Below are positions 14,635 to 16,351 of a stretch of DNA of 16,876 nucleotides, piece after piece. How positions within the stretch are numbered: the stretch's first letter is position 1; every line of letters starts with the position of its first letter. The notes beneath the pieces were generated by a model. That model worked only from the letters and a program-made list of their open reading frames with translations. It was not told where the DNA came from and did no database searches. The position numbers and the translations under genes are program-made. The stretch is from a virus: IMG/VR virus record IMGVR_UViG_3300009514_000122. One strand, written 5' to 3'.

Positions 14635-15042
14635 TTAGAATAAAGTTTCTATGGATGTTGGGTTAATCTTTGTTAATTTTACATTGTCTGCTGACTCTAA
14701 AGAAAGAATATCATGAGCCAATACTAATGAAACATCTCTCACTTTTTTGAAATCAATATCCTTTGTAATAATACCTTTTTTTTCTGCCCTGCCAATAGCA
14801 ATATCTCTACCGACTCTCCGATTATAAGAATCCATTTCATTGCACTTGGCGAATCCCCAACTCAAAGTTCCATCTTCTTTCTTTATAACAGCAATAGTCA
14901 CCCCGCCTGTGCTTTTGAGGTTTTCTTTTTTAATATCTTCTATCGGGCTGGCAGTAATTCCAACATCTTCATATCGGCATTTGTTCAGCTTACCATTCCA
15001 CCTCTGTTTAATCCTTGCGTGAACTATACAATTTCGTTTCAT
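14635..15042 (-). CDS. hypothetical protein, 135 aa, translationally coupled to the AAA+ ATPase
   Basis: ATG at 15042 has AAAAGGAGA with a 6-nt spacer, and the ATPase stop falls inside that spacer. Confidence 0.55.
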   Translation of the reverse strand: MKRNCIVHARIKQRWNGKLNKCRYEDVGITASPIEDIKKENLKSTGGVTIAVIKKEDGTLSWGFAKCNEMDSYNRRVGRDIAIGRAEKKGIITKDIDFKKVRDVSLVLAHDILSLESADNVKLTKINPTSIETLF

Positions 15043-15043
15043 T

Positions 15044-16351
15044 TTATTTCTCCTTTTTAATTAGGTTGTAAACGTCCTTCCTAGCCTTTTCAACATTTTC
15101 TTTATTCACCATGCACACATCCTGAATCTTAGCCATAGAAATCTGTTTCATTTTTGGTTCGGGAATATCCAGTTCCTTGTTATAAAACATTTTGAAAAAT
15201 TCCTCTATCTGTTCAAACTTCGGATAAGTCAACTCAACCTGCATATCAATTCTGGATGAACGTATCAAGGCGGGATCTAGCTTCTCAATATGATTGGTGG
15301 TAAATATTACGATAGTTCCCGAACTGCTGAATATACCGTCCAGACAATTCAACAATCCACTGAAACTTATTTTGCTATTAGTAATATTTTTTCTCCCATC
15401 AAATATTGCATCTATATCTTCCACCACTAACATGCAGGGAGAGTGTATATTAGCCGACAATTTAACCAGCGTTTCATCATCCATATCAGATGATGTCAGA
15501 TTCAAGTAGTGAAGTTTAAATCCCGTATAGGTGGCCAGTGCCTTGATGATAGAGGTTTTACCCGACCCTGGAGAGCCGTAAAATAAATATCCCCTTTTAT
15601 ATATGATACCCAATTTGTAATACCATTCTTCTGCACCTAAAAATTCATCAACATCTCTCAGTAAATCTTTTTTAATATCTTCATTCATGATAACGCTTTC
15701 CATAGACCTGCCAGCTAAATCCCCTTGGTAATCCCACCTGCCATAATCTCTGACATATAACTCAATAATATTCTTATTTTTTTCTTCATCCTTGTAAGTC
15801 ATCACTTCTTTAATCATGGAGTAAAGTTTTCTTTTGGCAAACAATCCAGATAGGGTATAGTGGTTATATAGAATTTCATCCCTATCAGTAACATGTTCCA
15901 GTTTTTCTTGAGTTTTGGTTATTAAAATGGGGTGCCACTTGTACCAGATAATAAAAGAATCTTCTTTTTGTTGTAAATAATAATCGGGCTTTTCGTCTTT
16001 GGGCTTTGATTTTGATTTTTTCCTGAAACTGGGCACAGGGGCCTCGCTTTGATAGGAACTCTGGTTCTCATTCAACGTCACCTGCACATTTCTGACCTTA
16101 ACTTGATATTTACTATTTGCTAACCACCTGTTGAAGTAGGTAAAGAATTTATCGTTCTGATCAAAGTATACACTGAATCTCACCTTTCTAGCAAATATTT
16201 CATATACCTTGTTGAAAAAAGGTTTTATATAATAACCAGCCCCACCCAATATCGTGAGCATAATACCGCCAGAGAAAAACTGATTAGTTTTCAACTGGTG
16301 CATCAGCATGTCGGGAGCGTTGGTAATTGTATTTATTATTATATCAATCAT
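15044..16351 (-). CDS. BCS1-type AAA+ ATPase (N-terminal TM anchor + BCS1_N-like + AAA), about 435 aa
   Basis: The hallmark WYYKLGIIYKRGYLFYGSPGSGKTS (compare BCS1 ...RRGYLLYGPPGCGKSS) and Walker B MLVVEDIDA are present. The N-terminal TM segment is FFSGGIMLTILGGAGYYI. The track start at 16396 is TTG inside the tRNA. The first ATG clear of the tRNA is at 16351, with others at 16309/16303. Confidence 0.85.
   Translation of the reverse strand: MIDIIINTITNAPDMLMHQLKTNQFFSGGIMLTILGGAGYYIKPFFNKVYEIFARKVRFSVYFDQNDKFFTYFNRWLANSKYQVKVRNVQVTLNENQSSYQSEAPVPSFRKKSKSKPKDEKPDYYLQQKEDSFIIWYKWHPILITKTQEKLEHVTDRDEILYNHYTLSGLFAKRKLYSMIKEVMTYKDEEKNKNIIELYVRDYGRWDYQGDLAGRSMESVIMNEDIKKDLLRDVDEFLGAEEWYYKLGIIYKRGYLFYGSPGSGKTSIIKALATYTGFKLHYLNLTSSDMDDETLVKLSANIHSPCMLVVEDIDAIFDGRKNITNSKISFSGLLNCLDGIFSSSGTIVIFTTNHIEKLDPALIRSSRIDMQVELTYPKFEQIEEFFKMFYNKELDIPEPKMKQISMAKIQDVCMVNKENVEKARKDVYNLIKKEK

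Follow-up and report, generated by a model that had tools for sequence, protein, structure and literature searches.

A BCS1-family AAA+ ATPase and an adjoining small, probably accessory gene in an uncultured large phage

What does a homologue of a mitochondrial protein translocase do in a phage, and does the small gene directly behind it belong to the same machine? This question is raised by the IMG/VR virus record IMGVR_UViG_3300009514_000122, a stretch of 16,876 nucleotides that was analysed as a whole and is referred to here as the window. It encodes an AAA+ ATPase resembling Bcs1, followed by an open reading frame (ORF) for a protein of 135 amino acids. Outside phages, BCS1 is a eukaryotic mitochondrial machine that carries a folded protein across a membrane; mitochondrial Bcs1/BCS1L (PDB 6sh3, 6uko) is an AAA protein that, as a heptamer, translocates the Rieske Fe-S protein in its folded state. 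The carrier of the window is a large phage related to jumbo/huge phages of Bacteroidota-type hosts. A first-pass annotation had described the ATPase as a BCS1-type protein with a membrane anchor of its own and the small protein as its substrate or partner. The reading favoured here, with a probability of roughly 60%, is that of a solo, membrane-anchored ring ATPase of the BCS1 family, which would handle one or more folded proteins at the inner membrane of the host and which sits beside an unrelated accessory gene.

The assignment of the ATPase to the BCS1 family is close to certain. Residues 35-220 match the BCS1_N profile of Pfam (PF08740) over all of its positions (1-182 of 182; E 7.8e-13; 49.2 bits, cut-off 28.1), and are followed by an AAA module (PF00004, E 5.7e-21, residues 255-375) and, at residues 380-427, by a weak match to AAA_lid_BCS1 (PF25426; E 0.007; 16.7 bits, cut-off 27). 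The best relatives among solved structures are the Bcs1 proteins of yeast and mouse. Yeast Bcs1 (6sh3) aligns with E 1.8e-45 between residues 20-427 of the query and 46-446 of the chain, an alignment that takes in the middle domain as well as the transmembrane helix. PHROG 7485, a phage protein family of unknown function, is matched over the full length of the ATPase (E 7e-81). The AAA module contains a Walker A motif (G259-SPGSGKTS), the Walker B residues E311-D312, the sensor-1 residues T351-T352-N353 and the arginines R364 and R367. In an alignment of 26 homologues, G259, G262, G264, K265, E311, D312, T351, T352, N353, R364 and R367 are invariant.

The family assignment made in the first-pass annotation is thereby borne out, since the PF08740 match exceeds the gathering threshold and the best full-length match among solved structures is a Bcs1. 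The converse assumption, that a generic AAA+ protein of the FtsH, ClpX or Cdc48 type was misread as BCS1, can be regarded as refuted. It could appeal to the top names returned by NCBIfam, which are FtsH, CDC48 and PAN. However, these matches are limited to residues ~223-396 and, at 45-65 bits, fall far short of the 500-1000 bits set as cut-offs, while the part of the protein ahead of the AAA core fits the entire PF08740 profile and aligns to the Bcs1 structures. The best non-Bcs1 AAA protein among solved structures (E 8.8e-30) covers the AAA core alone, and no FtsH/ClpX-like protein turned out to be the best match. A defence-system identity (IetA, TRIP13) was considered separately and rejected because the matches are confined to the AAA core: PADLOC places IetA there with 52.6 bits, and the NCBIfam model for an anti-phage ATPase reaches 46 bits where 510 are required.

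The ATPase gene and the parts of its product are located as follows.

15044..16351, minus strand: BCS1-family AAA+ ATPase of 435 amino acids, stop codon included (Pfam, yeast Bcs1 6sh3, PHROG 7485)
16214..16282, minus strand: Gly-rich hydrophobic segment, residues 24-46, QFFSGGIMLTILGGAGYYIKPFF (Kyte-Doolittle; alignment with yeast Bcs1)
15692..16249, minus strand: Bcs1-specific (BCS1_N) domain, residues 35-220 (PF08740)
15227..15589, minus strand: AAA module, residues 255-375 (PF00004; alignment of 26 homologues; motif counts in 120 homologues)

The hydrophobic segment aligns exactly on the transmembrane helix of yeast Bcs1 (chain residues 46-68). Its hydrophobicity is moderate, with a Kyte-Doolittle value of 1.09 over 19 residues; across 120 homologues, the maximum for the corresponding segment has a median of 1.58 and is at least 1.6 in 55 of them. 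The membrane anchor proposed earlier is thus a putative one, which aligns with the yeast helix and does not go beyond moderate hydrophobicity. The flank of the segment is acidic or neutral on the N-terminal side and rich in lysine and arginine on the C-terminal side. Under the positive-inside rule this charge distribution implies an N-out, C-in orientation, which would be the topology of Bcs1 once the cytoplasm of bacteria is taken to correspond to the matrix of mitochondria.

The architecture shared with mitochondrial Bcs1 extends from the short N-terminus and the single Gly-rich, putative transmembrane helix to the Bcs1-specific domain and the single AAA module, including Walker A and B, the sensor-1 TTN and the arginines of the R..R.D pattern. 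The window ATPase differs in being encoded by a phage, in its less readily recognised lid (E 0.007) and in a longer Lys-rich loop of the middle domain (~95-130). This loop lies within the BCS1_N domain, is variable, and differs in the closest homologue of the ATPase, P0004 (75% identity). A further difference concerns the context: neither a Rieske-like gene nor a bc1 context was found among the 17 ORFs of the window scanned against Pfam.

Phage-encoded BCS1 has been described before. Orthologues are on record for each of the three major jumbo-phage groups, and it has been proposed that phage BCS1 binds and translocates folded proteins during membrane-proximal assembly (Iyer et al. 2021, PMC7824862). 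A role of phage BCS1 in the movement of folded proteins at a membrane is thus an idea already published and not new (PMC7824862), and the ATPase of the window adds to a kind already known, since these orthologues and PHROG 7485 precede it. When the region was compared with cultured phages at the nucleotide level, no match was obtained, and its relatives are found at the protein level only. With tblastn, relatives of the ATPase were detected in 256 phage records, led by two entries from jumbo phages of Tenacibaculum, pT24 (36% identity) and PTm1/PTm5 (32%). The gene of pT24, BPT24_286, carries the annotation "mitochondrial chaperone BCS1", and its counterpart in PTm1 is ORF-060. Like the other phage orthologues grouped in PHROG 7485, the proteins of pT24 and PTm1 are full-length homologues of the same architecture from large phages (32-36% identity). 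The two phages differ from the window in having another, unrelated small ORF after the ATPase.

The wider family is large. In a large protein collection, 5418 of 8000 scored candidates reached E ≤ 1e-10, many of them with PF08740. Fungal BCS1 proteins are 29-30% identical at 98% query coverage, and a plant BCS1-like ATPase is 39% identical over 42%; fungal and plant BCS1 are thus roughly as similar to the window ATPase as the homologues from cultured phages. Judged by these comparisons, the lineage of the window, together with P0004 and a short contig described below (L013), appears to be a separate BCS1 branch found in metagenomes only. BCS1-like genes (24-26% identity, residues ~3-374) also occur in many metagenome-assembled genomes of Phycisphaerales and other Planctomycetota (L097-L116), a set that includes a chromosome of 3.3 Mb (OZ245777.1). 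These loci suggest a cellular bacterial clade of BCS1, the sampling of which is biased because a single peptide pattern was scanned.

Whether the ATPase works together with the small protein depends in the first place on how the two genes are arranged. Every plausible gene of the window lies on the minus strand, and both ORFs were recovered at the positions given to them in the first-pass annotation, the ATPase at 15044..16351 and the small ORF at 14635..15042. The elements that delimit them are listed below.

16369..16444, minus strand: tRNA-Leu(CAA) (ARAGORN; Rfam RF00005, 63.4 bits), the upstream boundary of the unit
15050..15055, minus strand: AAGGAG, a Shine-Dalgarno-like hexamer in the final codons of the ATPase gene, 7 nucleotides before the ATG of the small ORF (sequence)
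14635..15042, minus strand: small protein of 135 amino acids, assigned to the Acb4/Rv2632c-like superfamily
14489..14519, minus strand: terminator-like hairpin of 14 pairs, followed by a T run (consensus scan; visible in the sequence)

The ATPase is taken to start with the ATG at 16351. A longer ORF starting with TTG reaches 16396, but this extension would enter the tRNA gene, and the N-terminus beginning at the ATG, MIDIIINTITNAPDMLMHQL, is conserved in P0004. The 3' end of the tRNA lies 17 nucleotides ahead of the start codon, which on inspection of the sequence has no Shine-Dalgarno-like hexamer of its own. At the other end of the gene, the junction reads AAG GAG AAA TAA A ATG, with the stop codon at 15046..15044, one adenine at 15043 and the start codon of the small ORF at 15042. 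Of what had been said about this start, the strong Shine-Dalgarno sequence stands; the start itself does not fall within the stop region of the ATPase, as the ATG follows the TAA after one nucleotide. The hairpin (14519..14489) is found 116 nucleotides past the small ORF, just ahead of the next gene. Given the 1-nucleotide spacing, the ribosome-binding motif in the end of the ATPase gene and the terminator-like hairpin behind, the two genes form one unit between the tRNA and the terminator-like site. The AAGGAG hexamer is not special to this junction, because several other genes of the window are preceded by the same hexamer, and tight spacing is likewise common across the window. Upstream of the unit, with the tRNA directly after it, lies a gene for a NADAR-domain protein (16452..16868, minus strand; PF08719, E 1.2e-48; phrog_1017). 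The genes downstream are small and of unknown function, and nowhere in the neighbourhood of the ATPase is a candidate for its cargo indicated.

Such an arrangement could mean that the two genes form a dedicated pair, in which translational coupling would keep the two products at a constant ratio and the small protein would be delivered to the ring as cargo, adaptor or regulator. The start codon one nucleotide after the stop, the hexamer inside the final codons of the ATPase and the inclusion of both genes in one unit flanked by a tRNA and a terminator would all fit this assumption. It is further supported by a second occurrence of the pair. A word-indexed search with the small protein returned one homologue, P0002 (40% identity), on the 730-bp contig L013. 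The fragment upstream of it ends in ...VSMAKIQDVCMTNKENPEKARQELFQLIKTGE* and represents the C-terminus of the same ATPase, with 21 of 32 residues identical (66%). As in the window, the ATPase comes first, and it ends 3 nucleotides ahead of the small gene. The small proteins of the two loci are 40-43% identical, against 66% for the visible part of the ATPase. To judge from these fragments, the pair recurs once, in a close relative. Owing to this close relationship, the shared gene order may merely be inherited.

A survey of other BCS1 loci speaks against a dedicated pair. Two degenerate peptide patterns derived from the alignment of 26 BCS1 homologues were used to scan IMG/VR and yielded 197 viral loci, the best 80 of which were examined. 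ORFs within 4 kb of the ATPase were compared with the profiles A2 and A4 of the small protein and with an Acb4 profile at E ≤ 0.01, and a partner-like ORF was present at none of the 80 loci. Nor do these loci share other neighbours: the directly flanking ORFs of 79 of them gave no cluster above 4 loci. At five further loci (pT24, PTm1, L003, L005 and L006), no ORF within 5-6 kb of BCS1 matched the small-protein profiles, and the ORFs following BCS1 in pT24 and PTm1 are unrelated to the small protein.

The homologues of the small protein tell the same story from the other side, as three of the four loci that carry one lack BCS1 upstream. In L008, L011 and L012 (37-43% identity), other genes occupy this place. 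The contigs L006 and L008 are arranged as BCS1-X-Y and as partner-like gene-X-Y, respectively, with X, a phospholipase-A2-like gene, 68% and Y 45% identical between them. Because X and Y are shared, the small gene behaves like an insertion or deletion in a common neighbourhood. The shared, variable segment spans 1899..2962 in L006 and 1277..2148 in L008, and Y is a GmrSD_C-like gene. Other searches with the small protein returned little: tblastn against phage records gave one marginal motif match, and the scan of IMG/VR found nothing. A degenerate DNA pattern for the peptide WGFAKCN was discarded, as its two matches were due to chance and lay out of frame in a tail-fibre gene.

The properties of the small protein do not favour a role as cargo either. 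On inspection of its hydrophobicity, which involved no signal-peptide predictor, neither a transmembrane segment nor a signal-peptide-like hydrophobic stretch was seen, and a cofactor motif comparable to that of the Rieske protein is missing. Tight spacing and Shine-Dalgarno hexamers are, moreover, widespread in the window. The small gene is thus, with good confidence, no dedicated BCS1 partner, and the existence of such a pair appears improbable. The suggestion of a substrate or partner pair made in the first-pass annotation, for which a comparison of neighbourhoods in related phages had been recommended, finds its adjacency again in L013 only, with none at the 80 further loci and with homologues of the small protein mostly found apart from BCS1.

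If the small protein is not a partner, what is it? Its recognisable motif is H8.R10 ... G46-G47.T49 ... W62-G-F-A-K-C67...D71.Y-N...G78-R..A82..R85-A. An exhaustive profile search with an alignment of two sequences retrieved 403 proteins at E ≤ 0.001, 14 of them at E ≤ 1e-10. The family shares the pattern H.R ... GG.T.A ... G.AKC...D.YNK.GR.IA.GRA, and C67, D71 and G78 are invariant in a set of 34 sequences. From these 34 sequences AlphaFold2 produced a model with a pLDDT confidence score of 91.3, consisting of a four-stranded sheet and two long helices; a model from 2 sequences alone reached a pLDDT of 44 and was unusable.

Two families come into view as remote relatives. The sole Pfam match of the small protein itself is a weak one to the Rv2632c-like family (PF08962; residues 53-86, E 0.028), whose 14.8 bits lie below the threshold of 25, and PF13876 is not matched even at E 0.1. 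Among 103 profile hits that were scanned, 35 match PF08962 (best E 3.1e-7) and 13 match PF13876 (best E 7e-6), so that Rv2632c-like is the commonest Pfam family among the relatives of the small protein. PF13876 (Phage_gp49_66) is the family of Acb4, gp1.3 of phage SPO1, a tetrameric sponge for the cyclic dinucleotide 3'3'-cGAMP, of which homologues with extra extensions have been noted (bioRxiv 10.1101/2024.12.30.630793). When the broad profile A4 was run against 1061 ORFs, SPO1 Acb4 (E 3.9e-5) was the sole match beyond the close homologues of the small protein, and hhalign of A4 against an Acb4 alignment gave a probability of 86%. The search started from SPO1 Acb4 found 5 close homologues only, too few for a diverse profile. 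No match at E ≤ 0.001 was obtained when Foldseek compared the model of the small protein with the PDB, and a profile search of solved-structure sequences with the family found none; BFVD returned uncharacterised phage proteins only. The small protein is thus placed in a superfamily to which Acb4 and the Rv2632c-like proteins are counted as remote relatives, and outside PF13876. This superfamily of small phage proteins is broad and mostly found without BCS1 alongside.

The relationship with Acb4 leads to another explanation, in which the small protein would be an oligomeric, Acb4-like sponge for a nucleotide immune signal of the host, of the CBASS (cyclic oligonucleotide-based antiphage signalling system) type or a related one, and would have nothing to do with the ATPase. 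A core of three beta strands and a subsequent helix appears to be common to both proteins, the motif D.[FY]N...GR..A..[RQ]A standing in the register of SPO1 Acb4, and the adenine-pocket residues V56, F62, N63 and I66 of Acb4 align with C67, Y73, N74 and V77, which are similar and conserved in the family. A sponge would also fit the matches of 13 of the 103 hits to PF13876, the extended Acb4 homologues on record and the fast evolution and patchy distribution of the gene; small size, phage origin and rapid divergence are indeed features that the two proteins share. On the other hand, the guanine-pocket residues K36, F48 and E49 fall on the dissimilar T45, T59 and L60, and in place of the N-terminal helices of Acb4 there is a conserved beta-hairpin that contains H8 and R10. 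The small protein is also ~40 residues longer and has an invariant cysteine (C67) in place of V56. It does not reach PF13876 itself, its subfamily profile scores 4% against Acb4, neither the solved-structure profiles nor Foldseek against the PDB (E ≤ 0.001) gave a match, and the Rv2632c-like proteins, a family of unknown function, are matched by more of the hits (35 versus 13). An Acb4-like sponge is accordingly a rather unlikely assumption. It is compatible with a solo ATPase beside an unrelated accessory gene.

For the ATPase, the following mode of action is envisaged, largely by homology with mitochondrial Bcs1. It would be seated in the inner membrane of the host through its one N-terminal helix, with the short N-terminus towards the periplasm and the Bcs1-specific domain and AAA module towards the cytoplasm, and would form a ring. 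ATP hydrolysis would then drive the moving, inserting or assembling of one or more folded proteins at this membrane, the cargo being encoded elsewhere and not beside the ATPase. The small gene would be co-transcribed, and perhaps translationally coupled, as an independently mobile and fast-evolving accessory gene. That the ATPase acts specifically as a translocase or assembly factor for folded proteins is a more tentative proposal, with clearly less than even odds.

Several points weigh against the solo ATPase as pictured here. Its translocase activity would be extrapolated from mitochondria, its ring assembly is deduced, and the searchable literature yielded no experimental paper on a phage BCS1. 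The anchor is weakly hydrophobic (1.09), so a peripheral association with the membrane is possible. As regards the accessory gene, the neighbourhood survey leaves out the closest homologue of the ATPase, P0004, and the 1-nucleotide spacing with its Shine-Dalgarno hexamer, together with the pair kept in L013, allows a functional link specific to this lineage. The direct link of the small protein to Acb4 is weak as well: it has no PF13876 match of its own, and hhalign gave 4% for the subfamily profile A3 against Acb4 and 62% for A2 against the single Acb4 sequence.

The ATPase may instead be directed at the host or at competing phages, by extracting or remodelling inner-membrane proteins, by superinfection exclusion or as an AAA protein of the defence type. 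Its position among small genes of unknown function, the NADAR gene and a tRNA rather than among structural genes would suit such a role, as would the weak similarity of its AAA core to the defence ATPase IetA (52.6 bits) and the fact that no structural gene is a conserved neighbour at the 79 loci. However, the IetA and NCBIfam matches concern the AAA core only and remain far under the family cut-offs (46 versus 510 bits). No IetS-like protease adjoins the ATPase gene. A host-directed role is considered unlikely.

The most far-reaching explanation would unite both genes: phage BCS1 as a machine, independent of twin-arginine translocation (Tat), that exports folded phage proteins from the cytoplasm into the bacterial inner membrane or across it, with the co-translated, Acb4-like protein as its cargo or gatekeeper in this lineage. 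An Acb4-like ligand-binding protein would, for example, be delivered to the membrane or the periplasm. If true, this would be the first Bcs1-type translocase of folded proteins shown to operate in bacteria, and its client would be linked to it genetically; it is very improbable.

For the solo ATPase of the BCS1 family, the consequences are more modest. Comparative genomics had already revealed how widely BCS1 is spread among large phages, and the window contributes a branch known from metagenomes alone. Since the phage BCS1 genes surveyed have no conserved neighbour, the client of the ATPase cannot be read from gene order and must come from experiment. The family of phage proteins of ~135 amino acids, with its confident model and its remote ties to Acb4 and the Rv2632c-like proteins, is a modest lead for the binding of immune signals. 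The finding as such is real and largely already known, and its residual value lies in the negative result of the neighbourhood comparison and in the Acb4/Rv2632c-like lead.

The window also contains a gene for a protein of 867 amino acids (782..3385, minus strand) with the shoulder domain of the major vault protein (MVP; PF11978, E 1.3e-21). The ATPase had been described as lying next to this gene and as possibly linked to it and to membrane proteins; the two genes are actually 11.7 kb and ~27 ORFs apart, and no such synteny is seen in relatives. Among phage records, relatives of the MVP-like gene (39-40% identity, 92-97% coverage) occur only in LR756501, LR756503 (735 kb) and LR756500 (462 kb), which are huge uncultured phage assemblies, and the window is probably of a huge-phage lineage. 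None of the three records has BCS1 within 20 kb of the MVP-like gene, and the fetched BCS1 loci of pT24 and PTm1 contain no MVP-like gene. A link between MVP and the ATPase was rejected, as the MVP-like homologues sit in three huge phage records without BCS1 synteny. Two further matches lie upstream of the MVP-like gene in LR756500 (L016) without adjoining each other: an Acb4-like motif match (8693..8788; 47% identity over 32 residues) at a distance of 11 kb and a weak AAA match (15680..16264; 27%) at 4 kb.

Some other genes deserve mention. In a protein of 404 amino acids (7957..9171, minus strand), for which PHROG gave no match, Pfam recognises two membrane domains of the Na+/Ca2+ exchanger type (PF01699, E 5e-36); such a cation antiporter-like gene is an unusual one for a phage to carry. 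Two ORFs of the minus strand, 9095..9670 (191 amino acids) and 10306..10962 (218 amino acids), both match phrog_5698 (E 4e-8 and 1e-7, respectively) and are probably paralogues with one gene between them. A protein of 246 amino acids (12607..13347, minus strand) matches neither Pfam nor PHROG and carries the HExxH-type motif HEIYH in its first half, followed by an extremely Lys-rich and probably helical tail. Finally, on the IMG/VR contig L003 (675,678 bp), the gene just upstream of BCS1 (3961..5943) seems, going by its translation only, to encode an NAD-dependent sugar epimerase/dehydratase with an intein-like insert in it.

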